A stretch of DNA of 56,812 bases, counting the filler, from Sphacelaria rigidula (lineage: Eukaryota): assembly GCA_964200075.2 (NCBI GenBank). It is 6 parts of 6 records of this genome, joined end to end, with 100 filler letters (N's around TTAATTAATTAA, not from the genome) between each part and the next. Parts side by side here need not be neighbours in the genome. Positions count along the whole stretch, not along the records: positions 37,943 to 47,327 come from CAXNAA020008619.1; 5 more parts are not named here. One strand, 5' to 3'. The notes below the pieces were generated by a model. The model was not told the DNA's origin, did no database searches, and was given only the letters and a program-made list of their open reading frames with translations. Made by a program: the position numbers and the translations under genes. Shown here piece by piece: positions 9,387-48,818 of the stretch. How positions within the stretch are numbered: position 1 is the stretch's first letter; every line of letters begins with the position of its first letter.

Positions 9387-9486
9387 NNNNNNNNNNNNNN
9401 NNNNNNNNNNNNNNNNNNNNNNNNNNNNNNTTAATTAATTAANNNNNNNNNNNNNNNNNNNNNNNNNNNNNNNNNNNNNNNNNNNN
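9387..9486. other. Artificial contig linker (N44-TTAATTAATTAA-N44); also at 18873-18972, 28358-28457, 37843-37942, 47328-47427
   Basis: The identical 100-nt spacer, with stops in all six frames, occurs five times and separates pieces of 9385-9386 bp (size-sorted contig concatenation). Confidence 0.98.
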
Positions 9487-9635: not shown

Positions 9636-11674
9636 TCAGGTGGTGTGCTCTGCTCCGTCTTCGTGTTCGCTCTCAAATTCGAGTCCGGTAATAGCGGAAA
9701 TCATTTCAAGTTGCTCAGGGGATACCGTGATGCGGCGTCTTTTGTTGGGTTGTTCTGATTCGTCAGCTTGGTGTGTACGTTTCGCGCTTCCTGGTTGTGA
9801 TCGGTATGTCTGAGAGTAAAAGCCCCTCGGTAAGATATTTACCTCGTGTATGTAGGGGCACCGAGGGCGTCTGCACTCTACCCCAAAGGCGTGTCGAAAG
9901 CAAATTCGTGCGTTGCGCAAGAAATCTGTTATCTCCGTACGAGGAGAATCTGGTGAAGGGGGGTTGCTGATCGTAGCCGTGCCCACTTGGCCCTGGGTTG
10001 TAGTTGGTGTGGAACCTCCCTGGTATGTACTTGTGTGCGAGGTGTTATTGAATTGTTGGGTTTTCCCCGAGAACGGTACACCGTGCTGACCCGGAACTGA
10101 GGCGGGTTGGTTGGAAAAGGCTGCTACTGTGTTGTGACAACTCAAGGTAGGATTTCCCGTCTGGCACGTAGGAGCGCAGTGATGACATGATAGGTTTGGC
10201 GATTGCCATATACTTTGTTGGGAATTAGAGCAGATGGTCGGGTTTGGTTGTATGTTTACGCTGCCTACGTTGCATGCTGCTATCGCGTGGTGTCTGGCAA
10301 GGAGTGCCTTTTCCAGATCTTGTTTCGACTGTCCCATGAGAGCGCGAAGTTCAGCGATGGACGCTGCGCGGGACGTATTGCGTGAGGTAGGCTTGGTGGT
10401 GGATGTTGAGTCTAGGTACGCAGTGCTTCTGTTTCCCAACAGCTTCACAAAGTCGAAGAAAATTCTCTCAGCTACATTCCCTCTGTTCGCCATTCTTGCT
10501 CCCAACGGATCTTGTGCTTCTACCCGCAAGGGTCGTAGTTCTAGTGACACTCTCATCACCTGGTGGTGCATGATCGATTGCAGGCTAGACTGATCCAGGG
10601 CAGAGGGGATGAGTAGTCTGAGAGCTCGTTCAATTAGATCATTGAGGTGAGATTCGGAAATATATCTCCAAAAATAGATCTCTTCGGATGCATGAGGCAT
10701 TTCAGAGTCTACAGTGAAGGCCCTGTAGAGCAACACTAAGCGGCGTGCGGCGGCCGACCAAGCTTCCCCTTGTTTGATCGTTATGTTATCTAGGGCGAGT
10801 CGCGCGACCTCTGTTGCTCCGGGTTGGAGGGCGGATTCCCGTACTAATTTACGGAGCCATTCTGTTACTGAGACTTCGTCGGGTTGTAGTGTTATGAATG
10901 ACCCGTGTATGGTGGGGACTTCCACAGCTCTACCACTTTGTAGTTCGTCGTGAGTGCCTAGATAGTCTGCCAGTAGTTCGCTAAGTAGCTCTATACGGGA
11001 AGACGACATCCCATCCGGAAGTGGGCGGTAAACTCCGGTTTGAGTGTTGGTGTCATTGGGGAGGGCCCATATCCCTTGGTCCATATTTCTGAGAGTCTTA
11101 GCCAGCTTGTCGCAGCGAATATAACTGCGCATGTAGTGTGAGATGTTTCTACTTCGCCCCCACCTAGTCCGACAAAAACCGGTTCCGAAGCATTTCCTAG
11201 CTTACTGTGTATGCGGCGGATGGCTTTACTGCGTGCGTCTGGAGATAGTTTATGGTTGTACGTCATACCTGGGGTCCCTTGTGAGGTGACGGTGGCACCC
11301 TGCTGGAGTACCTGTTGTTGTGCCGACGACCCGCCTCCCTGGTTGGCTGTGGTTACTGGTACGGTTGGTGGTTGCGCATACCCCTGGTGGTGCTGGTTAG
11401 CAGCTTGTGGATAAGGGCGTGGTGGGGGTGGAGGCGGCACTACATTTCCTTGTTGTGGATGGGACACTCCCTGTGCTGGTTGTTGTTGGGGAGGAGGGTA
11501 AGGAGCAGGGGCACCCTGTTGTCCTACGGGGGCGACATACCAACCACCACTGGCAGGCGGGGGAAGTGGTTGAGCTGCCGGGGCCGGTATTTGGACCGGT
11601 TGAGCCTGGGGGGGTGCGTGCTGGTAGGCTCCCCCCACTTGTCCGATCGCAGCGGCATGCGCGTACATGTTCAT
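9636..11674 (-). pseudogene. gag: Gag-like ORF of Ty3/Gypsy LTR retrotransposon (P/Q-rich N-terminus, C-terminal CCCH finger), one frameshift at ~11110
   Basis: ORFs 10991-11674 and 9636-11132 join into one protein collinear with 53985-55670 (VPTIHGSFITL..EWLRKL..ALDNITIKQGEAWSAAARRLVLL..SEMPHASEEIYFW vs VPGVTGNFIRV..EWLRKL..ALHNMKLPKNESYVAAAHWLILL..ASPHLAEGEYF*). Contains CFRHAFGVECRRPRCPYIH. The homologous C-terminus in contig 6 directly precedes an aspartic protease. Confidence 0.8.
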
Positions 11675-18625: not shown

Positions 18626-18972
18626 AAACATTGTTCTATCCATATTCCTCCGGAGGGATGCGCGGCCTTGGAGACTGAAATCAGGCCTGAAAAGGGTGCA
18701 ATCCAGGCGGCGGATATAAAAAAATGCACACGTGGAGACGTTTCATTCCTCTGAAGGCGTGCGCGTAAACCCTCTGCACGATCGCAAGAAGACAGGTCCT
18801 AACAGGATTGCCAGAAAAATGACAAGGTATTTTGAAATGAGAATCCACCGCTCCCCGGGATTGTGTCCATTTNNNNNNNNNNNNNNNNNNNNNNNNNNNN
18901 NNNNNNNNNNNNNNNNTTAATTAATTAANNNNNNNNNNNNNNNNNNNNNNNNNNNNNNNNNNNNNNNNNNNN

Positions 18973-27980: not shown

Positions 27981-28474
27981 TGATATCCAAGGCGATATTC
28001 AACTATGAAAAAGTCGTGAAAATAGACGATTGAACACGATCCACTTATAAACTTGTAAAAAACGTGCTATAGATGGAGTCATACCACAAAACGTTAACCC
28101 CTGACTTGAGCAATACCGTAAGCTGAATATCTTTGTGGGTGTCGTGATACTGATTTTCGCACAGTAACTGATCCCAGGGGCACCCAGGAGGTCGCAAGAT
28201 GAAACGTCATTTTCCAGTCAAACGAAATATTCTAAGTTTGGTGGGGAGCATTGGATTTTTGGACGTGTTGATTGGTCTTGCTTATTTCACCCCCCCTCCC
28301 CCCCGAACTCCCAACCTCACCGCCCCAACAATGCCCCCAGCAACACCACCCTCCCGCNNNNNNNNNNNNNNNNNNNNNNNNNNNNNNNNNNNNNNNNNNN
28401 NTTAATTAATTAANNNNNNNNNNNNNNNNNNNNNNNNNNNNNNNNNNNNNNNNNNNNCCCCCTCCTTATGCTCC

Positions 28475-31627: not shown

Positions 31628-33330
31628 TTATTGAAATATGTTCCCCATTCGTGAAGCCAAAAAAAAATGGCTATCACCATCTATCTGCCTCGCCTTGCTG
31701 ACACCGGTGCGGCACTTGGGCTCAGAATCTTCGTCCCTCCCATAAGCGGTTGTTTCGATGTTCTAGAATGTCTAGCAGAACCAGTCGCCGCTGGACTGAT
31801 CACCCTTGCCCCTCCTGAGACCGGCTGCTCCGAGGCAGCAGTAGTTTTCACCGGGCTAGTGGCTAAACTTGTCTTCGTTGCGCCCCTATTGGACCCCAAG
31901 CTAGACGGCGCTGCCGCCCCGCCATCCAGCTCCCCGGCCGGTTTTGCTGTGGCGGGCGCGTAGGCGTTCCCTGGCTGGAACACGGGTCGCACAATCGTCC
32001 AGAGATCAAGGGGGTTTCATGTTATGACACCACAGCACGATGGCGTGAGAGCCTCGAGTTCCTATTTCTTCTATGGGGTACGAACAGCCCCTCTGTAGGT
32101 TCTAGTGTGAGGTTCTTATTCAGGCACCACAACTTGTGGTAAAGTTCTTTATATTTTGAAAACTTCGAGCCTGCAAGCTTTCAAGTGGTGGGTGGCACCA
32201 CCTGTAAACATTTGCGTCATCTCATGCATATCCCAGCACGATGTGGTGAGCCTCTTCACTGGCGTTCTACAAAAAACACTGTTCACCGAGTACCGAGAAC
32301 TTTTTCTTAGCAGGGTCTCTTTTTCAACCTCGACAATTTGAAAGAGTCCATTGAAGATGCTATCACACGTCGTTATTCCTCGAAACAACGAAAGCAGTAG
32401 TCCACTCGCGCCTGAGGGTGCATACCTCTTTTTCACCGTTCGATCTGTCGGGATCTTCGACCGCGTAGACCTTATGGGTCTTCACAGTACCCCAGCTCAC
32501 GGCCTTTTTTTGTTCCCCCACAACGTTGGTGTTGCCGACGTCAGATCCCGCCTCGTTTTTAGTCTGCGAATCATTCTGCGCCTGTACAACGACATCTGTT
32601 TGCCCCCAGTTGAGTGAGACACGTGATCCGCGGAGGGTGTAGGACAATGTGAGTCGTCGGTCCACCCAAGAAGTCTGGAATGAGATTAATCGACGAGCAA
32701 GTCCAAATCGATTGTTCTGTAGTCGGCTGTTCCTGAGGTGGATTTTCGCGTGGCATTGCCAGTGAATGACAGTAACAGTTGCACCATTGGTGTTTCTTGA
32801 TTGGTTTCATCCATTTTCGCACATGAAAATGATTCGCGCCATGAAATCCAGGTGTGGCCTCAAGACACAGACGTACCCGAGGTGAACAGGGGCAAAACAT
32901 GCGCCGAAAAAAACGAGAGAAATGACAAAAATGATAAATGCAGCAGAAAACAAAAGAAAGGAAGAAAGGGGGGGGGGGGGGAGAAGCAAGTAAAAAAAGA
33001 AGGAAGGAGAAAAAGAAACGACAAAACTACATTCGAGAAGGGAAGAGAGAAANNNNNNNNNNAAAAAGAAAAAAAAAAAAAGGAAAGGGGGGAGGGGGGG
33101 GGGGGGGGGGAACGCCAGTCCAAAAAGTAGGAATGAGTACGAGAAAACCCCAACATACTTCTGTCAAGGCTCGAGGTAAATAAGGTAAGGAGTCTGGACG
33201 AAAAAGAAACACGTGGAATCGGGTTGCGACTCAGCTCTCTGAACACCATACTATCATTATCAAGCCAGGGACTCTCAGGCGTCAACTCTCTAGGGGGAAA
33301 ACTAAAAAAACTCATGTAGCTAGCTCAGGG

Positions 33331-33372: not shown

Positions 33373-36007
33373 TGTAGCTAGCTCAGGGGGGAAACATTGC
33401 TAGTCTACAAAGTGTTGTCCATGAATATATTGTACCACAAACGGATCATGACGTTTTTCTGGCTCGGAAGGTGATCGAAGCGGATCCGCAGAAATGGTCA
33501 GCTGACCGGGGTCTACTGCCCATGCATTTGATTACTGCACACTCGACTCTACGCACGGGGCAAGAAAAAATCGATTCGGACCCCCTCAAAAGAGTTCAAT
33601 CACCTAGTCTGAACCGCTACGTCGTGTGGAGTATCGACCGGGCGAGAAGAAAACACTTCCGAAAGAAATAACGAGCAGCTTGAGTCTTCACCTCATTCCT
33701 GCTGGCAGCGGAAATACGGCAATTTTCAATCTGTGCATGATTTCAGTGCGTTACCATCTTTCGCATTTTTGCGGAAATATCGAGCGCCTAGTCATGCGGG
33801 AAAGCTTCGCGCCTCCCCCGTGGTCGTTATCCTAGTAACACGGCGTAGACACTGAATGGTAGATCCCCAAGGCGTTGTGTGCATGGCTTGTGGGGTGTTT
33901 TTGCTGCCCGAATGTTTCGTTTTTACATTGCTGCTGTCATGAACGGCTCTTCTGGTTATCGAGAGCACAAGCGTGCACAAGTTCTCGTGAATCGGCGCTT
34001 GTCCACGCCTTGTGCAGCCGGGGACAGTGGACCTCAGAAGGTGATGGGTGGTTGCGTCTCAGATCTGTGTCATCACATCCCTGCATGCTTTTCTCCTCAT
34101 GGTCCGTACGTTATCATTGTTCACAAGCAGAGTGTTTTTGTGGAGGGCAAGGTGTTTTTCAAGAAGAATTCAAGAAGATGAAAAACAAATGTTGGAAGAA
34201 AGAACTAAATACTTTCGAAAATGGTTTTCGGGTGGAGGCAACGGGGGCTACAGCAGCGACCAGTGAAATGACATTTCTCGCGCAGTGTTCTATTGCAGTT
34301 GCAATTTTGGTCCCCTCCAGACGCGCCCTTAAAAACTGGGGCTCCCAGTTTATATACCAGAAACTTGTTCCGAGGCTGGTCATTCACAGCTGGTGGTGAC
34401 TATCACACGAGTATATACCCAGTAGAACATTATACCGGGAAGAGATGGATAGATCCCTTGAGACCACGGGCTCGTTACGAGAAAGGAAAGGGGTTGGAGG
34501 TGTCATGGAGGAAATGCATGTAATGGCGATATGCCCACCAAATGTAGACATGCTATAGCGTAGGGTTCGAAGGCCATCACCCAAGCTCATCCCGAAAATG
34601 AAAAGACTTTGTCTGATACTATCGTAAACAAGAGCACAACACACGGGGGTTCGGCACAAGCAGTTCTGTATCCTGCAAACGACGAACGATGGACACAAGG
34701 GGCGTGACTACCGTAGTAGCTCGCAGCAAATTGTGCACGCGTACAGCAGCAGCAACACCAACAACATCTGACCGACGAAACAACTTGATAGCACCAGTTT
34801 TAAATGGTCGTTGGGTTAGTACCGCATTCTTTTCGCGTAGCGGGTTACCGGATGGCGAGAGACTCCCTGCGGGTTCCGGTACCGCTACCGACCACTGGTT
34901 GATTGACTGTTTTTTTGGTTGGTTGTAGTGCTCACGTTAAGGTATCCCAAAGCATCCAGGCGTGGTCAATATCCACAAAATAGATGTACCCACGGCTAAC
35001 AAAACGAAAGCACTCGCTGAAAAAAAAAGTGAAAGGAAATTGGAAGATTGAAATAAAAAGGTACAACAAACGAAGGGAGTAAACTGAAAAACACAAAAAG
35101 TTGGTCAAAGCAAAAACAAAAGAAGGTAGAAACACGGTTCGGACGAAGACATCGTGATTCTGTGGGAGATATCCCTTAGCAGTGACATATCAGAGACTGA
35201 TGTCACACATGTATACAGACCCAGTGCAAGCAGGGACGAGGTAGGAACGTTCCGGAAGGACCAGATTCCCCGAGGACCCTGTAATGCCAACGAAACTAGA
35301 CAACTCGGGGTGATGCCAGGAAGAGCCTAATATTCAGGACGGTCCAACATCCCCCGAGGAACCCGGTCGCCTCCAGCGACCACTCTGTGTCTGACCCACT
35401 TCTTGCCTACATCTCACAAGAGGAAATCATCGTCAGCTTCGGAGTTCCCTCGGCATCAGGACGATATCTCTTGGAACAGCCTCTTCCTTAGTCTGTCCCC
35501 CCTTGGATACGTCCTCCTTACACTGGCGACACCAGATTAAAACTCAAGTAAGACATCTAGTAGTAGGGCACACGTCTTTCATAAGAAGAAATCCGCCCAC
35601 AAAAAATTCACTAGAACAACTACTCAGGGAAGGGCCACCGCGAAGACCCTCCAACATTCAACCGCGGCCGTCACACCATCAGCTTCCACCTCGGCGGCGA
35701 AATCGGCAGAGTCCAGAGGCGCAGCACAGTCAGTAGTACCTGCGCCGGCCGACACAACGCTGCCCGCTCAACCCCCGTATAGCCACGGGGGGAAAAGCGA
35801 CAGCGACAACTCCGAGGGCTCTGAGCGGAGCAACGATATCCGTCAGGTGTCCACCAGTAGGTTTGATGCGCTTCGCGACCCCACCAATTTATCCTCATCC
35901 TCTACACCAACCCCTACGTCACAACCCACCGTCAAAGAAAGGCAGCAGAGCTCGCATATAGGGCGTGGGAGAGGAGTGACGAGGAGGGGACGGAGCCAGC
36001 TCCGTGG

Positions 36008-37400
36008 GTGATTCAAGCTTTGGGGTTTTCAGTGCCGCAGGAACAGGGAGTTTCACAGGTATCGAAATCGAGCAACCCAGTAGCGTCGGAAATAGAACAT
36101 CTAAGTAACCGTACGATGCTACAAAACAATACAAGTAAGCCCCAGAATAGTGTCAACGATCCAGTCGATAATTTCGAGGTCGAACTGCCTAACACTACGC
36201 CGATCCAATCCACAGAGAGCTCAGGGACTTTGACGTTAGAACCGCCAACAAGCCTCACTAACGTACAAGAAAACAGCCACAACATAGAGCCTCTGCCTAG
36301 TTCAGTGCTGACTCCGCCATCTACAAGCCAGAGTAGCACCATGAGAACTCAATTTTTTTCGATGAAACAATCGGATCTTCCATCAACGTCAATCCTAGAA
36401 GGAAAACGGAGTGAAGACGTGCCAGCAATTCTTGATGCGTTTCTCAATCGAGTTAGGGTTCATGCCCCTGAAGATTGCACAGAATCCACAGTACAACGGC
36501 ACGCCATAAAACACTTACCACTTATTCTCAGAGGGTCAGCAGAAAAGCTATACACCCCTCTCGGAAGCGGAAAAGTAGAGTGGCGTCCACTAGCTGTACT
36601 GCAGGACCTCAAATCGAGAGGAGAAGATACCGCACCCATCGCCCCGGAAACATGGACAGAATGGGTAGCGGCCTACACTCATCGCTTCTCTCCACCAAAC
36701 CAACCAGCAGTGTTTGCCCGTGCAATAGCCGATCTGAAACAAAAAAAAGATCAGAACGTAGACGGCTATGCACTGGAGTGTACGACTTCGATGGACAGAT
36801 TCGTGACCGAGCCTTGCGGTTGAAATTCCCTGGCCACGACACGCTTCGCTTCATAATAGACATGATCACACCAGCAGCATTTGAGACCGGGCTCAAACCC
36901 CATATCAGAGTTGAAATGATGAGAGAAGATAGTACGCTCGACTTCCAAACTGCGACAGCACGAGCGAAAAAACATGAACAAAACAATCTTCGCACATGGC
37001 CAAACCAAACGGGAGACACTCCCCATGTCTCGGCCGCAACTGTAGATTCCCCACGTCCACAGCTAGCGGAAATGATAGCCGATCATGGCGCAATCCCCAC
37101 GGATCTTCAGTCGCAGTCAAAAACGATCAAAGGAGAGAGAGGGACAGCGGAGAAACGGTCTGCTAGCAGAGACAGGAGCGCGAATAGATCAGGGGGAGAG
37201 TTGAAAAAAGCACGCTTCAAAGACAGTAACGATAAGAGTACATCCAACGACAAGTAGTTGAGCGGTAAAACGAAAAAATCGGTCCGTTGTGAGCACGCAC
37301 CATGCAGGTACAAGAACACACACGAGACAGCGGATTGCCGCCTTATGCAGAGCCATGTAGAGTTTGCTAAAAAGTACAACCCGTGAAGGCGCCCAAGAGA
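36008..37400 (+). pseudogene. gag: Gag of a second Ty3/Gypsy-type LTR retrotransposon family (frameshift ~36815, stop 37255)
   Basis: TWTEWVAAYTHRF...IADLKQKKDQNVDGYA (retrotransposon gag core), AFETGLKPHIRVEM, and a zinc-knuckle-like CEHAPCRYKNTHETADC at ~37288-37340. Confidence 0.7.
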
Positions 37401-38179
37401 AGACCCCTCGTCTGATCAGGGCAAAAACGGTAAATTTTCACGTAGAAAATCTAGGGAAACAGAAGAACGCGAAATCGTCAACCCTCTGGCTCGTAAGATG
37501 GGAGAGTTTCATTTTTCTGACAGTACGGCAGACCAACCACGGAGAATGCGTAAGAGGTCTCGGGTAGAGGTCAACCATGTACGGGATGAGCACGAGCAGG
37601 AGCATAGCAGCAGAGAGCAGAGTACAAATAGCGAATGCGTAGAACAGATGCAACGTATATTTTTAGCTCCGCAGGCGGCTTTTGTGAGTAACTCATTGAA
37701 GAAAAATAAAAAATCGAAACACCAATCTTCGTTTTCAAACCCGGCCCTAAATGATCACTGTTATGGCTGTTACAACGCATCTTCGCTCGCAAGATATACA
37801 GTTGCACCTTTAGAGTCATCCTACGATAGGGGGGGGAGTATTNNNNNNNNNNNNNNNNNNNNNNNNNNNNNNNNNNNNNNNNNNNNTTAATTAATTAANN
37901 NNNNNNNNNNNNNNNNNNNNNNNNNNNNNNNNNNNNNNNNNNAGGGGTGCGAGGTCAATGGTCTGATGACTATGGCATGCATGATCATGAGTACACCCCA
38001 GCAGCACCTCCATACCCCCATCGTGAATATCCAAAACAAGTCACACACCGATGTCAACACCGTCAAAACTGTCGATAATATAAGCCCCTGACGACCTGCC
38101 GTGCAGCAACCAATGTCGCTGGTGAACTCGAAACAAATATACAGTGACAAACACACATATGCAGGGACTTGTATTTCAT

Positions 38180-38600
38180 CGATTACGCCGCAATTTGAGT
38201 AAAGCCTTCTCGCTCATCCCTGTGGCAAACAATTCGGTTCATTCCCCTTTGTGCAATGATATGGCATCACGGGAGCGAAATATGAAACCCAGAGGGGCTG
38301 GAGAGGATGAGGAGTATGCACTGTTGGACATTACTCTACCTCGTCTCTCGAGAAGAGTATATATAATAGGGAACGATACAGAACTCGATACTGCAATTTT
38401 GCACCGACCTCGACTCTCGACATCTCGGATACAGTGCCTGTCTCAAAATGGGAAGTAGTGGTCAGTTTCTCCCATACGCCCCCTTCGGCCTGAGCGTAGT
38501 GCCACGGACTCATTCATACTTGCAATACATTACCGGTGAACGACAGGAGGAATGGGGCACCCATTGCCCGCACATCGTCGTGACACCGTAGACGTACAGA
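38180..38600 (+). pseudogene. Highly decayed retrotransposon integrase core
   Basis: AFSLIPVANNS, IIGNDTELDTAIL (cf. SDNGTEF) and PYAP...LQYITGERQEEWGTHCPHIV (cf. integrase QxDWDxxLP region) appear in the expected order across frames. Confidence 0.4.
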
Positions 38601-39137
38601 CAGAGAAGCCCCCCTACCTGCATCATTACACGAAATGCAACTCAAGACGGCACGTAACCTATTACATTGTCATTACAACGACAAAAAATGCAAGAGGGAC
38701 ATTCTTGCCCCCGGGAAAAATCATACCCCGTACACAGGTCTCGTCACCCCCCGAATGTACGTATGGAGATCAACTCAAAACGTATGGGGAGTAATGACAC
38801 GTCAGCTTTCGAAGCTACAAGATATAATACAACCTGAATGATAAAGCGGTTTTGTATACGTATACGCCTCCAGCTTACAGGCAAATATTCGGAGTACTGA
38901 AGCATGAATCACAACATCATCTGACCGTCTCCACCACCCACACCCGTACCCACCACCCCCCCTCACTCCCCAGGAGTACTCACTAGCCATGAACTCCGAC
39001 GACGTAAGATCTCCAATGTGAGCTCAACCCCCTTCTCATGAAGGCTGCGTGTATAGCGCACCACCTCGATGTCTCCTTTCACACCATCAATATCTCCAAC
39101 AAACGTCATTTACATTTTTCGATCGGTCGCCCATCGC

Positions 39138-40961
39138 TCACCGCAAAAGTGCTGGCCTAACGCGCGGGTTGGCCGCTTCCCCAAATTCGGTGCTATCGAC
39201 GCGCAAACTCTGCGACACAGCGGCAAGCAGGGTCGCCCCGTCCGGTACAGGCTTCGGGAAAACGCCAGCTGCGCCAAGCTTCCGATACCGCAACTCGTCC
39301 GATTTCGAACAGTTTGCTGAGCACATAAAGACGGTTGCGTTGACCCCACGTGACCTCAGCGTGGAGATATAGCCAGACCCGGTGATTTCACTTCCGCGGA
39401 AGCACTCGTCCAAAAACAAGACATCGTACGGTAACCCTTGTGTTGTTTTCTCGAGGCACTCCGGTAGGGAGGATGCTGTATCTACTGTCCACCCCAACGC
39501 ACCGATGGGTTCTCGTGTGAGCTTGCGCACAAGAATTCGGACATTGATGCTCTCGTCGTCTACTATCAATACCCTTAGCGATTGAATGGCCGTCGCCGGT
39601 ATACCCTTCTTTTCATACCCGCGGCAGCGCCCCTCTGCCAACACACTCGGCGGCCAAGGTTTGAGCAGCGAAGCGGACAAAGGGCTGGTAAGGATCGCGC
39701 TGGATGGTCCACACGTGGAGACTTCTTTTAACGATACCGTGAACGAAAAGGCTGTCCCGTGTTCCATGTCCGGAGATACAGGAGGACTAGAAACACGTAT
39801 TTTGCTTCCCATCCGCCCGACGATTACGCTTGTCAAGTATAGCCCTAGTCCCGTGCCCGAGCTTTTGTGAAACGTTTGGAATTTCGTGAACATGGCAGCT
39901 TGCTCCGCCGCCGATACCCCGGGGCCGTTGTCCTCCACCGAGAAGACTATCTCGTGGCTGTGACCCGTACGCCTTACCACGTTCATGCATAGACGAACAA
40001 GGCCCCCGTCTCCAACGTACTTGACGGAGTTGCTCAGCAGGTTTATTAGCACCTGCGATAACCTCGTGCTGTCCGCCAAGTAGTACCCGCCCGTTCCCTC
40101 CCCGGGCACGAAGATGCAGCGCGTTCCACGCGACGTGGCACTCAGAGCGCTTATCCGCACAGCGTTAGAGCACAACTCCGTCAAGCACGTCCGTGCAAGG
40201 TTCAGCGGCACACCAGACTCGAGTTTTGCTATGTTGAGAACATCATCCAACAACCGCGTGATGAGCTCCCCGCCGCGCATGCAGCTTTTGAGGTGCTCCA
40301 CGGTGGCGTGATCCAGGCCAGGGGTTTCGAGTAGCATGCTCTCAATCCCGTTGACCACATGATTTAGCGGGTTGCGGATCTCATGAAACAAATACTGGAT
40401 CATCCGTTGCTCCGCCCGCAGTAGTTTCCCCTGCTCTCCTATAAACAACCACCCCAGTAATATCAACGCGCACACAACCACTGTAATGATGACCGTTACC
40501 CATTGCCTCACTGTCCTCAGACGGTTCACCTCTGTTCTGCTCTCTAGCTCCAACGAAAGGACATAAGACTCCATGGCGTACAAGAATGCAGTGCCTTCCT
40601 CAAGCACATCCGCAAATTGGTCTCCCGCCAACGCCTCCAAAAACTTCTCAAACTGATGTGCAGTCTCGGCAGACTGAAGATATTCTTGAGCTTCCTTGAA
40701 TTGAACCAAGACACGGTCGAACACGGCTCGCGCGTGGGCAGGTGCGCCGGGGTTGAGCGGACAATACAGCGATAGCCGCTGTGACAACATTCTTTGTCTC
40801 CCCGCCCTATTGATGCGAGTTGCAAGCGACGTTATTGCCGAGTACGTGAAGCCTTGCAGATGAAACCCCCAACAGATCACCCCAGCCACATTTGCTAAAG
40901 CTAACGCTGACGCGACACTTGTAGCCAAGCGTGGCCTGTTTTTATCGGAGGTAACACACAT
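39138..40961 (-). CDS. Intronless membrane hybrid histidine kinase: TM - NarX/PilJ-type sensor - TM - HisKA - HATPase - receiver (607 aa from first ATG)
   Basis: P-box-like INRAGRQRMLSQRL after TM1; TM2 WVTVIITVVVCALILLGWLFI; H-box YLFHEIRNPLN; N-box QVLINLLSNSVKY; G1 VEDNGPG; F-box MFTKF; G2 GTGLGL; receiver LIVDD...LFLD...SAN...FPKP. Single uninterrupted ORF. Confidence 0.95.
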   Translation of the reverse strand: MCVTSDKNRPRLATSVASALALANVAGVICWGFHLQGFTYSAITSLATRINRAGRQRMLSQRLSLYCPLNPGAPAHARAVFDRVLVQFKEAQEYLQSAETAHQFEKFLEALAGDQFADVLEEGTAFLYAMESYVLSLELESRTEVNRLRTVRQWVTVIITVVVCALILLGWLFIGEQGKLLRAEQRMIQYLFHEIRNPLNHVVNGIESMLLETPGLDHATVEHLKSCMRGGELITRLLDDVLNIAKLESGVPLNLARTCLTELCSNAVRISALSATSRGTRCIFVPGEGTGGYYLADSTRLSQVLINLLSNSVKYVGDGGLVRLCMNVVRRTGHSHEIVFSVEDNGPGVSAAEQAAMFTKFQTFHKSSGTGLGLYLTSVIVGRMGSKIRVSSPPVSPDMEHGTAFSFTVSLKEVSTCGPSSAILTSPLSASLLKPWPPSVLAEGRCRGYEKKGIPATAIQSLRVLIVDDESINVRILVRKLTREPIGALGWTVDTASSLPECLEKTTQGLPYDVLFLDECFRGSEITGSGYISTLRSRGVNATVFMCSANCSKSDELRYRKLGAAGVFPKPVPDGATLLAAVSQSLRVDSTEFGEAANPRVRPALLR

Positions 40962-41854
40962 CGTTTTGATTGCACAGGTCACACGCGAAGCAGTATATGG
41001 CTTGTATTGAGACAGCAACTGCGGAAAGACTACTAACGCACGCACTGAAGCAGATCAATAAAATTTGGAGAAATGAAACTCGGTTGGATGGTTCAATCAA
41101 GCGAAAATATGCGAAACAGCATGCAGGTCTGGGTGAGAAATCGGAGCTGCAAGATACTACTTGTCAGGAATCGAGAAGCAGAAACCCAATGGTAGCGTGG
41201 GTGCACCTTGCCCGGACGTTGACGTGAAACGAGTTCAAAATGTGGCGAAATCAGGGTCTAGACGGCCAAGATGTGGCGTAGATCATAGAGGGGTTGTTTG
41301 AGGTTGTCCTGGAGGCGGAACTTGTGCCAATCAGAACGGCAAACATGATACTGCGGCGAGACCAAACTATCCAAGGGAGAATTAATAGATCACAATATCT
41401 TCGCCAACACGCCTGGCTGAATCCAGATACAGCGGGGAAAATATTGTAACATTGGGCCCTACCAGTACCGTAAAGTTGTGCAGACTCCCTGCAGGGGGCC
41501 ACTTTAAGAGCTCTCGTCGCCAATCGGGGAGAGGCAACCGTGAGTGCTCGATAGTATTTTAAGAAATGCAAACTATTCCACAACCATCTCACGCTGACAC
41601 GCACACAAGACAACTCGTGAACAAGTCGATTTTCGAATAAATAAAAAACTCGCGAACTGCAACTTTACAACAACCCTCAAAGCGCTGAGACAAATTTCCG
41701 GCGATGCTCCCCCACGAGCGCACATCTTTACCCGAAAGCGTCAACAAACCGTGGCGCAACCGATGGCCACGGTCAGTCTGGACGAATCACATTGACTCTT
41801 CAGCGTTCGTATAGACGCGTTGCTTGGTAAATAATCACATGTCGGACAGGTCAG

Positions 41855-42248
41855 CTCCTTGTAGCTCGAGCTAGCTCTTTTTTAGTGTAGCTTCCTACTG
41901 AGCTATGAGAGCTACACAAGCTACGCATGTTTGTCCTGGGTGAGCTCTGAGAGCTATATGAACTACGCATGTGTACCCTAGGTGAGCTACCAACCCGTAG
42001 TTCATCAGCTCATATTCGCCCTGAGTGAGCTATAAGAGCTACATGAGCTACGCAAGTTTACCCTCGGTGAGCAACCACCCCGTAGCTCATCACTTCATGT
42101 TCGCCCGGGGTGAGCCATGACAGCTACATGAGCTACGCATGTTTGCCCTGGATGAGCTGTGAGAACTTCAGTAACTGCGCATGTTTGCTCTGGACGAGCT
42201 ATGAGAGCTACGTGAGCTACGAGTGTTTGTCCTGGATAAGCTATCGGA
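41855..42248. repeat. GAGCT-rich minisatellite element, copy 1 (~42-bp unit built from 9-bp subunits)
   Basis: gagctatga-gagctacRt-gagctRcgc-atgtttgccctgggt repeated about 8 times. Confidence 0.9.
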
Positions 42249-42740
42249 CGTGCAGTAGTCACCAGTCACAAAATAGCACCGTTCAACATCGCAGCAGGCA
42301 ACCGCCCTGCCACCGTCATGGTATCAGCATTCGCTTCGTTTTCTTAGGTGAAGTTGGAATGCTCGGTGCGCATAAGTTGTCGCCTTCGGTACAGCTTCGC
42401 ACTATTGCTAATCTCGCCTGTGCACGTGCAGCTAGAAGAAGACCGTGTAGACCGTGTGAACGATTCGTGATCTACTCGTACTGCACAGCAGCAACGCTGC
42501 ACTACCATTTCTGAAGAGTTCATCACGCCTTCCACCATCGTTGTGGATGATATGGCAACGCAAAACCGTTGCCATGCGGCTTGTCTCTTAGCTTGGAAGT
42601 ACCGCTGTGCTGTTTGTATTGCTGTACCGTACCGCAGTGTAGTGTACCATTGTGTTCTGCATTGCACGGTGGAGTAACGTAATGTACTGCACTGCACTAT
42701 AGTTTCAGAAACGGTACTTCAGGCATTATTTCAGGAAACT

Positions 42741-43214
42741 CTAAGGCCGCTCCTTATGAAAAACAAACAAAACGTTCTGCAAAAATGTAATTGTGATCCT
42801 CCTTTGACGTTTTACGCCCTAAAAGAGAGCTAGGCGGAGTTTGACACCTCGGAATGACTTGCTCTACTCGTTGAGACGGTTCCAGGACATCTTCGTGTTT
42901 TCCGGTGGACGCAGTTTTTTTTTCTACCAACTTGCATTTTTGTCCAAGAACAATCACGAACGGTCAAATCTAGAGAAACTCATCTTTTTATCATTTGTTT
43001 ATCTGGACTCGACCGTCTCTGGATGAACATGTTTGTTCGGTCAACATAAAAACTGCAGCTACCGGAAACGCGAAGATGTCCTGAAGCCGTCTCAACGAGT
43101 AGAGCAAGTTCAAACTCCGCCTAGCTCTCGTTTAGGGCGTAAAACGTCGAGGAAGGACGAGAGAAGCATCTTTGTAGGACTCTTCTTTTCGCTTGCCAAA
43201 AGGAGCGAACTTAG
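42741..43214. mobile_element. MITE/foldback element with ~180-bp imperfect TIRs
   Basis: gacgttttacgccctaaaagagagctaggcggagtttga...acttgctctactcgttgagacgg is inverted at ccgtctcaacgagtagagcaagttcaaactccgcctagctctcgtttagggcgtaaaacgtc; ends ctaaggccgctcctt / aaggagcgaacttag. Confidence 0.85.
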
Positions 43215-43395
43215 GGGCTATGGGCTAGGGTGTCTTACAAAAAATATTAACTGCAAAAGTGCGGCAGGAAAGAAAAATTCCGATCTTACAAGTCCACGTC
43301 ATTCACGTTATTATATGTCTTCAACTCCTGATCACAATTCTTCACGCGCGGCCGGAAGGCGAAAAACGGAAAAGCTCCACACGTGAGACAAATCA

Positions 43396-43817
43396 CCTCC
43401 CTGTAGCTCGAGATGAGTCTTTTTGAGCGTAGCTCCCCACTGAGCTGTGAGAGCTGCATGTGCTGCGCAGGCTGCCCCTACGTGAGCTATGAGAGCTACG
43501 TGAGCTGCGCATGTTTGCCCTGGGTGAGCTGTGAGGGTTACATGAGCTACGCATTTTTGCCCTGGATGAGCTATGAAAACTACGTGAGCTGCGCATGTCT
43601 GCCCTGGGTGAGCTACCAATCTGTAGCTCATCAGCGTATGTTCGCCCTGGGTGAGCTATGAGGGCTATATGAGCCACGCATGTTTGTCTTGAGTAAGCTA
43701 CCAATCTGTGGCTCATCAGCGCATGTTGACCCTCGGTGAGCTATCGGGCGTAGCTTACATGTACATATTTGACTACAAGTGAGCTACGGCCCGCACATGA
43801 GCTAGCTTACGAGCTGT
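43396..43817. repeat. GAGCT-rich minisatellite element, copy 2 (direct orientation)
   Basis: Same leader (ctccYtgtagctcgag...tttt..gtagct..actgagct) and same 42-bp unit as 41855-42248. Confidence 0.9.
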
Positions 43818-44304
43818 CCAATGTATGCAAAAAGGGATAGAAATGCTCAGTCCAATCCATACGCGACAATATATCTATACGGTGCGGGGGAGCGGTGCAC
43901 TGTCGAGATTGGCTTCAACAACGAAAAATCATCGGACGAGTCACTTCAAGGAGCAACACAAAGATAGTCTTCAACTGAGTGCAACAGGACTTGACTGAAA
44001 TTCTTGGCGGTCCGCAAGTTGAGCTCACCGCCTGGCCATCCATCTTTTGGTGCGCGGTATATACATTAGCAAGGGTCTTCTTGTGTGCAGCAATGAGCCG
44101 GTCAGGGACAGCTCATACGGTTCGAGCGAGCTACCTTCGCCTGCCAGAAGAAAGACGCGCGCGGATGAAGATTCGGCAAACAAGAGGAATGATGAAACGT
44201 CTCCACGCCCTATGCATCGCATGCGTCGGCTCTCTGGTATGATATTTCTCCTCGGAGGGTTAGGGTTAGGGTTACGGTGCCTCCCAAAGTTAACCTTGTT
44301 TACG

Positions 44305-44392
44305 CTGTGCTGTGCTGTGCTGTGTTGTGCTGTACTGTACTATGTGCTGTACTATGTGCTGTGCTATGTGCTGTGCTATGTGCTGTGCTGTG
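44305..44392. repeat. (TGTGC/TATGTGC)n microsatellite
   Basis: Direct inspection. Confidence 0.9.
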
Positions 44393-45814
44393 CCACGTTC
44401 ACTTGTTTGTTGGTGGGACGGCGTAGTTGTCGACACAGGAAGTTTTCGCTTGATTTGCTCTCGCTGGGCCATATCTATGAAATAAAGTCAATTCACGCAG
44501 CAGGCTACACATACTGCAGAACTGAAAACGTTTGATTTTCATCAAACACCGTAGCGTATTCATCTACGCGCCAAGCTTTCGCCTTGCTTTCCTCCCGCTG
44601 GCCCGCAGTCGAAAATAACTGCCTGTCGCAATGCCGACTAATCGCACTACCAATCTACCTGGTACGCTACCGCTGTTCTAACAGGTATCCATTTCTATCA
44701 AGAAAACACTCGAGTTCTAAATTGCCAATTAACCAGATCTAGCGACCTATAGCTCTGAGTACAACAGCAGAGGCAGTTCAAAATGGTTGTGTTTAATTTG
44801 AAGCCGATTGCATCATAAGTGATTATATACACGAACGTGCTGGGCATTCTGCTGCCAGACGAAACAAAGCTATCCATGTGAACTTGTTTTAGGAAGATAC
44901 ATTGCGTTGTTGTTTTTCATGTCGTTTCTCGCGGATTCACCACTCTCGGGAAAAAGAGGTCCGGCTTTGCCAAAACCCTCCGCGGTAGAAAGCAACAGCA
45001 CTCCTTATTATACAACACACCATCATGTCCCGGGCGGTCAAGCTGGTACACCGACGGTCGGTGTCGCTTGAACGGACCTAATGGGTTCTGCGGGCACCAT
45101 ATATGTATAGTACTTTCATGCCGAACCCGATCTTCATCGTCGAAAGCATGATGACACGCGTAGCAACATGAAATATCAATCCGAGTGAGCCGGCTCCGGG
45201 TTCGCTGATGATTATTGTCCAACCCTCGACAACAACTTGTTGGGATGCACGACAAACGTTACGGGCAGGGCGAAAAATGTTGCACTTCGAGTCTTTCCAA
45301 AAGTGCCGTTCGTAACGGTAAGGAAGTGGATAAAAGCCGATGAGGAGACCGCGTGCGCCCGAAACATGGATGTGCTTGGCCAATCTACGTTGGCCACCGG
45401 TATCCTGCTGCCGATGATTTGCATGCAGCGCCAAGAGAAACAGTCGACATCGTCAAGATTCGCAAGCTACAACTCAACGGCAGCTGGATGTGCGGATGCG
45501 CGCGCACATTACAGAAAGAACAAGGACGTTCCAGACTCAGGTGGCACGACATGAAACCTCCGCCTTGTGGCCATTAGATTGTGATGCATTACAGTGCATG
45601 ACGGTATCTACGAGAGTGTGGCACAGTAAAACTGGCCACTTGCATGAATGCAAGTGGACCCAGGCCGAAAATCAGCCACGACTACTATCTTAGTTATTGG
45701 ATGCATCTATCTCCTTCACGGTTGTGGGCTAAAATGGTGAACAGACGGAGTGGTCTTAGGTGTGGAAGTAGCTCTACATGAGGTTTAGTAGATTTAGAAC
45801 CCCCCTCCCCTGGA

Positions 45815-46417: not shown

Positions 46418-47200
46418 TAAATTTTGGGGTCACCGTGTCTCGGCCGACGGCATTGCACCCGACTCAAAGAAAGTGGACGCGTTGCGATTAATGTCAATGC
46501 CTACCAACGTTGCTGAGCTGCGTTCGCTTTCGAGGGGGTGAAGCTATTATCGAAAATGTATCCCCAAGATGGCCGCCCGTACAAAAGCCACCAATGATTT
46601 GTTGAAAAAAGGGGTGGAGTTCACGTTCACGCCAGAAAACGCGGCTACCGTCTGTGACATTATGGAAGATTTGTCTAGCACTAATGTTCTGGCTTTTCCT
46701 GACTATGAGGGGTGCTGCGTCTGGTGGTCGTCCTTTTGTGTTGGTCACTGATGCCAGCAAGAAAGGACTGGGGGCTATGGTGGAACAGCGCCAGCTACGT
46801 GGATCCGTGCGGCCTTTATGTTTTTTTAGCCGGAACACGTTGCCGAATTAAAGGAATCGGACGGCCACTGAGTTGGGAGCTGGCGCTATAGTGTGGGCTG
46901 TGAAGAAAATTCGGCCTCTGTTTTTTGGGGTGCCTTTCTAGATTTACAACGATCACCAGCCTCTGCGCAGTCTGTTTAGCTTAACAGAGAAGGTGCCGCG
47001 GGTTCAGCGTTGGCAGGATTTTCTTAGGGCGTACACGTACGGAATTTTCCACAAGCCAGGTGCCTCTAACTCCAACGCCGACATGTTGTACCGACTGCCG
47101 CAACCTCATAGCCCGGAGGAAGTTGGCGAGCGGTTCCAAATCACCGACCCTGCCGATATCGATATTTACTTCATTGGGGCAAGTGGTATCGTGCCTCGTG
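46418..47200 (+). pseudogene. pol: Ty3/Gypsy pol fragment: RT C-terminus, connection and RNase H
   Basis: GHRVSADGIAPDSKKVDAL...YYRKCIP...LLKKGVEF...VLAFPDY; FVLVTDASKKGLGAMVEQ...PLCFFSR; IYNDHQPL; RVQRWQDFL...HKPGASNSNADMLYRLP; several stops and frameshifts. Confidence 0.95.
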
Positions 47201-47427
47201 GCTTTGAACGTCACGTTTGGGTGGGCTCCCCGGCGGGTCAGGCTTGCCCCAGGGTCTTTTTTTTTTTGACTTCCCCTCGCGGCGAGGTTCAAGGGGAGGG
47301 GGAAAGAACACTCGGAAAGTCGTTGACNNNNNNNNNNNNNNNNNNNNNNNNNNNNNNNNNNNNNNNNNNNNTTAATTAATTAANNNNNNNNNNNNNNNNN
47401 NNNNNNNNNNNNNNNNNNNNNNNNNNN

Positions 47428-48111: not shown

Positions 48112-48818
48112 CCGACTAAACTAGTGCACGACTTGTGGACGGGATCATGGACGGTGCAGTAAGTGGTGATACCAGGCCTCAGCCTTGAGGTGAGTATGCA
48201 GGGACGCAAAGTACGAGAACGGACGGTGTCGGCAGCCAATGTGAACAAATTTCATGTGCGCCCTGAACAGCTGCGACACCCGTTTCCGGACGGGTACTCT
48301 CAGTTAGCATGGGGGGCTGATCTGGGTTTGGCTGAGGGGATCGAGGTCGTCCCACAACTGTACACATTGACAGATAGGAAAGTGGTGCTAGGAGCAGGAT
48401 CGTCATGGGAGTGGGCCTATCGAGGGTTATTTCATGACCGAGCTGAATCTCATTGGCTTTCTGAGGAGGAAGTGTTGGACAGTTTCACTGGGTTGCAGCT
48501 GGACGTGTTTCATGCTTTGTGGGAACTATATCACCCGCAAGCCAAACCACGCCCATCTGTTACGCCATCTCGAGCCGAAGGAGGCTCTATTGCTCGGGAT
48601 GAAGCTTTACGACAGATTCCTCGAGGGACAAAGTCCGTAAACGGTTTGTAGACAACCAAGGTGAGCAGCAGGAGTTCGACGGAGAGGTGTTCGATTTCCG
48701 TCAGCCGTATTACCGTATCAAGTATGAGGATGGAGATTGGGAAGAGATGACGTCGTTGGAGGTGCGAAAATTTACGGTGAATGGGCAAAATACCGGAACA
48801 GTTTCAGGGTCTAACTGA
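48112..48818 (+). pseudogene. Integrase C-terminal region: GPY/F-like motif, chromo-like domain and Tudor-like domain (frameshift ~48633)
   Basis: KLVHDLWTGSWTV; YTLTDRKVV...WAYRGLFHDRAESHWLSEEEV...FHALWE; GT(K)VRKRF...EFDGEVFDFRQPYYRIKYEDGDWEEM; followed by PPT and LTR. Confidence 0.7.

Follow-up and report, generated by a model that had tools for sequence, protein, structure and literature searches.

What the locus examined here raises is the question of how a gene of bacterial appearance comes to lie in the genome of a brown alga, and what its product senses. The window, a stretch of 56,812 nucleotides from Sphacelaria rigidula (GenBank assembly GCA_964200075.2), holds at 39138-40961 on the minus strand a frame for a membrane-bound hybrid histidine kinase whose sensor resembles those of bacterial nitrate receptors. 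A preliminary description of this DNA had taken the gene for an intact, intronless, virus- or bacterium-derived receptor of nitrate or nitrite. The analysis below indicates that it is very probably an expressed algal hybrid kinase with a PilJ-type sensor, belonging to the family of EsV-1-14, a protein of Ectocarpus siliculosus virus 1 (EsV-1). Taken as a whole, the explanation that we prefer, on a rather fine balance, is a transcribed brown-alga-type gene of at least two exons, encoding a membrane hybrid kinase of the EsV-1-14 family that would sense an oxyanion of the nitrate/nitrite type and feed a phosphorelay.

The frame encodes a complete hybrid histidine kinase

Counted from the ATG at 40961, the frame runs through 607 codons without interruption. 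It is open from a GTG at 41045 or from this ATG to the stop codon at 39138-39140, and no other open frame in the window is as long (the runner-up has 521 codons). The encoded parts follow in the order transmembrane (TM) helix, four-helix sensor, TM helix, HisKA, HATPase_c and receiver (REC) domain. HisKA, HATPase_c and Response_reg each exceeded the gathering score of Pfam (Table 1), as expected of a hybrid histidine kinase. Beyond these three domains and PilJ, the sole Pfam match at E <= 1 was a weak second ATPase model; HAMP, HisKA_3, GAF and Hpt gave no match in the kinase at this level. Hydropathy placed hydrophobic segments at residues ~12-33 and 150-178, bracketing the sensor, and about 17 residues, with no HAMP domain among them, separate the end of the second segment from His193.

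In an alignment of 20 family sequences (A1), 37 columns were invariant; among them are His193 with its box, in the ATPase the Asn, Gly-1 and Gly-2 boxes, and in the receiver the two paired acidic residues. The identities of the box residues were assigned by reading this alignment; as judged from it, the phospho-acceptor His, the N, G1 and G2 boxes and the receiver Asp and Lys all appear to be in place. With its open codons, its Pfam domains and its catalytic residues kept, the TM-sensor-TM-HisKA-HATPase-REC frame is intact, as had been claimed for it.

The sensor resembles bacterial PilJ-type domains

Pfam matched PilJ (PF13675) to residues 45-103 of the kinase with an E value of 2.1e-5, and a relative, P0011, scored 26.6 bits for the same domain. 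When residues 1-185 were searched with phmmer against 1.84 billion representatives, 32 matches were obtained at E <= 1e-3, and the three at E <= 1e-30 were all members of the family. Thirteen of the 30 new matches were scanned for PilJ. Eleven of them, comprising chemoreceptors, multi-PilJ proteins and kinases, carried the domain well above the gathering score, and the remaining two were a truncated family member and a short protein without a match. The family alignment A1 was then compared by hhalign with A3, a set of 22 proteins from the sensor search, of which the five that were scanned carry double PilJ domains. This comparison gave a probability of 98.3% and an E value of 2e-14 over 105 columns. 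Since it covered query residues 44-141, the homology extends past the motif discussed below to the whole bundle.

An AlphaFold2 (AF2) model of residues 1-185, built from a 20-row alignment, had a pLDDT of 91.5 and helices at 9-65, 77-95, 98-112 and 116-184, the first and last of which extend into the membrane segments. Model and hydropathy together gave a four-helix bundle of about 115 residues flanked by two membrane helices, which is the architecture of PilJ. In a Foldseek search of the Protein Data Bank (PDB), whose ranking serves as a lead only, NarX and NarQ occupied ranks 1-7 (E 0.047-0.13) and the nitrate chemoreceptor McpN ranks 9-10. VIA-align placed a NarQ fragment comprising the sensor and the membrane helices at the top (Z 12.9, rmsd 2.6 A, 171 residues), Z values under about 13 being common among helical bundles.

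Several results weigh against this assignment. The PilJ score of the single sequence, 25.0 bits, is below the gathering score of 26.6 bits, and EsV-1-14 had no Pfam PilJ match at E <= 1e-3. No Foldseek match in the PDB reached E <= 0.001, and by VIA-align Adeh_2942, PcaY, KinB and Tar lay within 1 Z unit of NarQ. Besides, phmmer with residues 1-185 against PDB sequences returned no nitrate sensor, the best matches (E 0.12) being unrelated cannabinoid receptor/cadherin chains. The modelled fold would indicate a four-helix sensor and nothing further. On the profile and sequence comparisons, we regard the sensor as homologous to bacterial PilJ-type domains.

The N-box and the candidate ligand

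The string INRAGRQRMLSQRL at residues 50-63 had been singled out in the preliminary description as the nitrate-binding region of PilJ- and NarX-type sensors. By regular expression, residues 50-61 fit exactly the 12-position N-box pattern [IVL]-[ND]-x-A-G-x-Q-R-M-L-[ST]-Q, which Martin-Mora et al. (2019) derived from sequences homologous to McpN's ligand-binding domain (PMC6381276). In McpN, Gly58, Ala59 and Met62 contact nitrate, Arg61 forms a hydrogen bond with it, and the R61A exchange abolishes binding; according to the same authors, a chance match to the pattern is expected in well under one sequence (PMC6381276). The P-box motif of the histidine kinases that sense nitrate and nitrite (NSHK), A-I-N-x-A-G-S-L-R-M-Q-S-Y-R-L, contains a binding core G-x-x-R (PMC8199190). 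Nine of its 14 specified positions are identical in the window protein, and the core is present as G54-x-x-R57. The N-box lies in the first helix of the sensor, and in McpN, NarX and NarQ it is with this segment that nitrate is held at the dimer axis. Given the exact N-box match and the kept core, the earlier identification of the motif is confirmed.

The contact residues are also kept in the relatives. G54, M58 and Q61 were invariant in alignment A2. Among the 15 family members whose sequence includes this region, Gly54 and Met58 were invariant, and Arg57, and with it the G-x-x-R core, was present in 14, the exception being the truncated P0122. This protein of 251 residues, 43% identical over the sensor, ends a short way past the H-box, with Gln at the position of the nitrate-binding Arg; it is likely a decaying copy in another genome.

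The motif is the whole of the nitrate-specific evidence, and from it we put the chance that nitrate or nitrite is the ligand of the sensor at about even. Against nitrate stands, first, that PilJ, the namesake of the domain, is without an N-box and does not bind nitrate (PMC6381276); therefore, the fold or the family by itself is uninformative as to the ligand. Second, the exact N-box pattern was found in four of the 15 family sequences, and EsV-1-14 deviates from it at two positions.

A rival reading, which we hold to be rather doubtful, is that the same receptor kinase carries a sensor for another small ligand, for a partner protein or for nothing at all, and that the N-box has a structural or dimerisation role. 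PilJ-type and other four-helix sensors accept many different ligands, and the structural scores failed to separate nitrate sensors from PcaY, KinB, Tar and Adeh_2942. The rest of the bundle is just 14-19% identical to NarQ, NarX and McpN. Moreover, in the clade of viral and Ectocarpus sequences, Ser replaces the Ala before the Gly in all eight members, and a Cys-rich insertion absent from the bacterial domains is present. However, the exact N-box match, with so low an expectation by chance (PMC6381276), and the invariance or near-invariance of the contact residues Gly, Arg and Met across a family 27-91% identical to the window protein argue against this rival reading.

Proposed signal path and comparison with known systems

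In the path proposed here, the kinase would work as a dimer. Nitrate, nitrite or a similar small oxyanion would bind on the non-cytoplasmic side, with Arg57, Gly54 and Met58 of each subunit as its contacts, and would be held between the two Arg57 side chains. The signal may then travel along the continuous predicted helix 116-184 through the membrane into the dimerisation and histidine phosphotransfer (DHp) domain, where a shift of the helix would alter the autophosphorylation of His193. From His193, the phosphate would pass to Asp518, then to a putative Hpt protein and on to a putative response regulator.

McpN (PA2788 of Pseudomonas aeruginosa; PDB 6GCV) resembles the window protein in its PilJ-type bundle between two membrane helices, and the window protein fits exactly the N-box pattern taken from McpN homologues; besides the Foldseek ranks of McpN, the structural comparison gave Z 11.3 at an rmsd of 2.3 A over 100 residues with 19% identity. 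While McpN signals via HAMP and a methyl-accepting domain to a chemotaxis kinase, the window protein is itself the kinase, has a fused receiver, and is eukaryotic and encoded by a spliced gene. NarX and NarQ of Escherichia coli (PDB 3EZH, 5IJI and 5JEQ) likewise have a four-helix sensor between two TM helices and a membrane-proximal P-box with G-x-x-R, NarQ being the best structural match over the sensor and both membrane helices. Unlike them, the window protein has no HAMP and no GAF-like domain, carries a fused REC domain, and has HisKA instead of HisKA_3, to which all NSHK DHp domains belong (PMC8199190). Membership in the NarX/NarQ family of kinases is ruled out by these differences. The likeness noted in the preliminary description is limited to the sensor module, and the transmitter is of another type.

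The same domain order as in the window protein is found in P0062, P0137 and P0143, presumably bacterial proteins of the type PilJ-HisKA-HATPase_c-REC(-Hpt), of which P0137 and P0143 likewise have an exact N-box. They differ in forming a distant outgroup in the tree (P0062 is ~24% identical), and P0137 and P0143 carry the Hpt domain that the window protein is without. Kabbara et al. (PMC6324907) described eukaryotic kinases with a NarX-like N-terminal sensing region from Klebsormidium, Selaginella, Physcomitrium and a dictyostelid, and read them as possible horizontal acquisitions. Those kinases belong to other lineages, and they are likened here by description, not by sequence. The Ectocarpus kinase classes described in the relevant part of that paper are MASE1, CHASE and phytochrome, with no NarX-like one among them.

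The kinase gene has a 5' exon

Nine sequencing runs from three studies contain the stretch 38000-42500, and four of them were compared: X1 and X3, DNA-type runs from two studies, and X4 and X7, both from one study and RNA-like by inferred label. X1 and X3 gave one contig each that spans 38000-41874 collinearly with the window, both flanks of the open reading frame (ORF) included. The X4 contigs match 38023-38950 and 38927-40936 and the X7 contig matches 38059-40936, with zero mismatches. In both runs the match to the window breaks off exactly at 40936, beyond which the contigs have 193 and 207 other letters, respectively. The first 30 of these letters are identical to window 44030-44059, a unique match that none of 100 shuffles reproduced; collinearity was checked for these 30 letters and assumed for the remainder. 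On the gene strand, the junction reads ...GCG/GTGAGC at 44029/44028 and ...AACAG/G at 40936/40935. The depth of X4 and X7 was 13-17 in the exon and 0-3.7 in the intron, their low or absent cover beyond 40936 being no finding by itself.

We read this joint as a spliced transcript with a canonical GT-AG intron of 3,093 nt (40936-44028). As this intron is found in the contigs of both X4 and X7, the earlier claim that the gene has no introns does not hold, and the gene is not monoexonic, as viral genes almost always are. Two caveats attach to the reading as a splice: the RNA label of X4 and X7, none of the runs being recorded as RNA, is a guess that concerns a single study, and, strictly speaking, the joint could also stem from a processed DNA copy elsewhere in the genome.

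Since the intron contains the ATG at 40961, this codon is not in the mRNA, and the start codon accordingly lies in the upstream exon. The exon-1 frame that feeds the kinase frame is open from 44339, and its in-frame ATGs at 44222, 44066 and 44039 lead to proteins of 663, 611 and 602 residues. The assembled transcripts end at 44222 and 44236, and 44222 is their earliest ATG. The first base of exon 2 is the third base of a codon split with exon 1. All domain calls hold, because the sequence from residue 10 of the 607-residue reading is unaffected, and every recognised domain sits in a single exon. In five of eight close relatives (P0002, P0004, P0006, P0008 and P0009), the gene call opens at the Met midway along the N-box and is without TM1; the true starts of these genes, too, may well lie in a separate, unrecognised upstream exon.

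The family of EsV-1-14

A protein search scored 8,000 candidates, 864 of them at E <= 0.001. The 20 best matches formed a block at E <= 1.5e-41, and the next match (E 1.6e-29) was confined to the kinase core and covered 33% of the query. The named sequences in the block are a partial protein of Ascophyllum nodosum (53% identity), encoded on a contig of 1.24 Mb, proteins of two Ectocarpus species (34-36% identity) and EsV-1-14 itself, which showed 34% identity at 90% query coverage (E 1.9e-67, or 7e-73 when compared with the window by tblastn). EsV-1-14 is one of the six hybrid kinases of EsV-1. Its parts are arranged as in the window protein (TM, sensor, TM, H-box, ATPase, REC), and it keeps the G-x-x-R-M core of the N-box. 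Its H-box motif and those of its Ectocarpus relatives are nearly identical to that of the window protein, with H193 and 36 further columns invariant. By its full-length similarity, its common architecture and its grouping apart from other kinases, the window protein is of the EsV-1-14 type, and the family appears, on these comparisons, to be common to brown algae and a single phaeovirus. When 2.9 million viral contigs were scanned twice, once with the protein and once with A1, only the EsV-1 locus was found (one of 43 and one of 147 candidate stretches); the scan patterns were short and mostly H-box, so divergent viral copies could escape them.

In a quick maximum-likelihood tree, 20 family rows stood apart from four PilJ-kinase outgroups with an SH-aLRT support of 100. 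SH-aLRT was the only support measure, the root was placed at the midpoint, and P0003 (the window's own partial gene call) and P0122 were left out. The window gene falls in a clade of nine rows (support 98) that includes Ascophyllum and whose members are 51-91% identical to the window protein; EsV-1-14 and Ectocarpus make up another of eight rows (support 98), and three sequences from metagenome and ENA sources a third. The tree did not resolve the order of the three clades, so that transfer between virus and alga could have run in either direction. The phylogeny that the preliminary description had proposed places EsV-1-14 within the family and the window gene in a clade separate from the viral one.

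Further differences set the window gene apart from EsV-1-14. Its N-box is exact, that of EsV-1-14 being off at two positions; a 5' intron interrupts the gene; and around it, the searches of the window turned up no viral neighbours. The sensors of the EsV-1-14/Ectocarpus clade have an insertion with two conserved Cys and another conserved Cys elsewhere, and those of the window clade do not. Disulfides in the EsV-1-14/Ectocarpus sensor would fit an extracytoplasmic location.

Genomic surroundings and origin

The window was searched for remains of a virus around the gene. All 143 stop-to-stop ORFs of at least 100 aa other than the kinase gave one Pfam match at E <= 0.001, and it was to no giant-virus family; this weak Retrotrans_gag match is listed in Table 1. 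For the region 31-50 kb, ORFs of 55-99 aa were scanned as well: of 126, 15 that overlap the kinase ORF were dropped, and the remaining 111 gave four matches, none viral (RT_RNaseH, a second RNase H model on the same ORF, a Tudor domain and a chance-level Ig). Capsid, polymerase, packaging ATPase, integrase and other giant-virus families were thus absent from the scanned ORFs of the window. A tblastx comparison of 21.6 kb around EsV-1-14 with the window found the kinase as the only match, and no second copy or fragment of the kinase was found within the window. Strongly decayed viral genes could be missed by these ORF and tblastx searches.

The gag-like frame and the RNase H fragment are remains of decayed retroelements that flank the kinase gene. 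Together with arrays of a 42/85-bp tandem repeat, they bear out the earlier statement that the gene is surrounded by decayed retroelement and repeat DNA. The summed X1 contig depth over the arrays rose to 282,614, against 67.9 for the flanks; the 42/85-bp unit is extremely abundant in this genome.

Table 1 Coordinates of the kinase gene, its encoded domains and neighbouring features in the window
Feature	Position	Strand	Evidence
Exon 1, extent of assembled transcripts (193 and 207 nt)	44029..44236	-	Divergent ends of X4 and X7
Intron, 3,093 nt; GTGAG donor 44028-44024, AG acceptor 40937-40936	40936..44028	-	X4/X7 junction; sequence
Exon 2, coding part, TM1 to REC; stop 39138-39140	39138..40935	-	ORF; Pfam; end of contig match; acceptor AG
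3' untranslated region (UTR), at least ~1.1 kb	38023..39137	-	X4 and X7 contigs, no mismatches
TM helix 1 (residues 12-33 of the 607-aa reading)	40863..40928	-	Hydropathy; AF2 helix 9-65; translation
PilJ-type extracytoplasmic four-helix-bundle sensor, predicted (residues ~35-150)	40512..40859	-	Pfam; hhalign; AF2; Foldseek; NarQ Z 12.9
N-box (residues 50-61; G54, R57 and M58 align with McpN nitrate contacts)	40779..40814	-	Exact pattern match
TM helix 2 and short exit (residues 150-178), one predicted helix toward the H-box	40428..40514	-	Hydropathy; AF2 helix 116-184
HisKA (DHp; residues 184-250), phospho-acceptor His193 at 40383-40385	40212..40412	-	Pfam, 33.9 bits against gathering score 26.9; H193 invariant in A1 (20 sequences)
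HATPase_c (residues 297-412)	39726..40073	-	Pfam, 75.5 bits against gathering score 26.4, E 5.6e-21; N307, N311, D344, G346, G348, G369, G371 and G373 invariant in A1
REC (Response_reg; residues 464-581), phospho-acceptor D518 at 39408-39410	39219..39572	-	Pfam, 39.0 bits against gathering score 30.2, E 9.7e-10; D468 and D469 invariant in A1, D518, S548 and K570 conserved in at least 90%
42/85-bp tandem repeat array in intron	41899..42244	.	TRF
Second 42/85-bp tandem repeat array in intron	43441-43744	.	TRF
Retrotrans_gag, weak	35867-36820	+	Pfam, 20.3 bits, below cut-off
RT_RNaseH fragment	46606-46848	+	Pfam, 32.9 bits, above cut-off
PTM/DIR17-like Tudor, exon-sized 71-aa frame	48603-48815	+	Pfam, 33.0 bits against cut-off 27.2

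The gene was therefore not found to lie in a viral genome or in an inserted viral region; it is solitary among repeats and retroelement debris, outside any recognisable viral insertion. Of the supposed viral or bacterial derivation, what stands is the full-length relationship to EsV-1-14, and what does not is a viral insertion around the gene. Because it stands alone outside such an insertion and has a 5' intron, the gene behaves as an algal gene, its ultimate origin aside.

Constraint was assessed from the X3 contig, in which 33 sites over the stretch 38000-41874 depart from the window sequence. Seven of these lie in the coding part (1,798 nt), nine in the 3' UTR (1,138 nt) and 17 in the intron part (938 nt). 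Four of the coding differences are synonymous and three are not (A597T, C325R and H102Y), giving a pN/pS of ~0.25. The count of seven coding sites is small, which weakens the argument; the polymorphism points in the same direction as the open frame and the conserved residues.

These data bear on the view that the gene is a leftover of an old, decayed phaeovirus insertion that is still open by chance, incidentally transcribed and without algal function. Such a leftover would account for a kinase family common to EsV-1 and the alga, for the confinement of all domains to one exon and for the repeats and retroelement debris of the neighbourhood; the truncated P0122, with Gln at the nitrate-binding Arg, illustrates that some copies elsewhere decay, and the often-monoexonic histidine kinases of brown algae have been read as viral acquisitions (10.1101/2024.02.19.579948). 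We nevertheless consider it improbable, since no giant-virus gene was found across 39 kb of the window on one side and 16 kb on the other, a 5' exon and a spliced intron of 3.1 kb have been added, 607 codons are open with every catalytic residue kept, polymorphism is lower in the coding part than in either UTR or intron, and the clade numbers nine members at 51-91% identity, among them the copy on the 1.24-Mb Ascophyllum contig. An assembly chimera, or contaminating bacterial or viral DNA outside the algal chromosome, is hardly credible: the domain set does look bacterial, and the regular runs of N in the window make continuity unreadable from the sequence alone, but the X1 and X3 contigs from two studies span 38000-41874 unbroken with both ORF flanks, the transcript is spliced with GT-AG ends, and the closest relatives are brown-algal, bacterial matches being limited to the kinase core.

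Implications for brown algae and phaeoviruses

Nitrate is an important nutrient of seaweeds, and its receptor would be of interest to algal physiology as well as to virology. A further-reaching reading, which we hold to be rather less likely than not, is that brown algae bear a cell-surface receptor for nitrate or nitrite in the form of a His-Asp phosphorelay kinase, and that phaeovirus genomes carry the same type as EsV-1-14. If this were true, the kinase would be the first candidate for an external nitrate receptor in stramenopiles, one phaeoviral histidine kinase would gain a concrete ligand, and a link from nutrient status to host development or to viral latency and reactivation would become a testable idea. 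The N-box assignment itself supplies a specific and cheaply testable ligand hypothesis for one class of kinases, and the spliced copy without viral neighbours is a clean example of a phaeovirus-type kinase as an algal gene. The PilJ/N-box sensor and the phaeovirus-type hybrid kinase are both of known kinds, to which the window gene adds a further member.

Hybrid kinases number six in EsV-1 and three in other phaeoviruses, and the functions of phaeoviral histidine kinases are stated to be unknown (PMC11890097). It has been suggested that viral kinases might tie the activation of the virus to cues (PMC12993054). Among the kinases of Ectocarpus, several are viral or related to viruses (PMC6324907), and the MASE1, CHASE and ethylene-binding-like classes resemble acquisitions from viruses (10.1101/2024.02.19.579948). 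The sensor classes named in these papers are MASE1, CHASE, ethylene-binding-like and phytochrome only. In a full-text literature search, no paper was found to connect a kinase of brown algae or phaeoviruses with a PilJ- or NarX-type sensor; two sources outside this search, Delaroque et al. (2001) and Table S20 of 10.1101/2024.02.19.579948, may bear on the point.

Other features of the window

The Tudor frame listed in Table 1 probably belongs to a spliced gene of the host, located downstream of the promoter side of the kinase gene. Upstream of exon 1, at ~44256-44274 and 44304-44393, lie three telomere-like AACCCT units (minus strand) and a GCTGT/12-mer microsatellite. Five identical blocks, in each of which 12 bases stand between two runs of 44 N, are spaced at intervals of 9,485 bases (9387-9486, 18873-18972, 28358-28457, 37843-37942 and 47328-47427), and the contig on which P0003 is recorded has 9,385 bases; the blocks look like an artefact of cutting or masking of the record, without biological meaning. 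A separate gap of 10 N is found at 33053-33062. The frame of 521 codons at 9639-11201 on the minus strand is not of low complexity and had no Pfam match at E <= 0.001. It contains a zinc-finger-like motif, C-x8-C-x4-C-x3-H, near its C-terminus, and at its upstream end it is overlapped by a frame of 241 codons. Either a host exon or a transposon protein is conceivable here.

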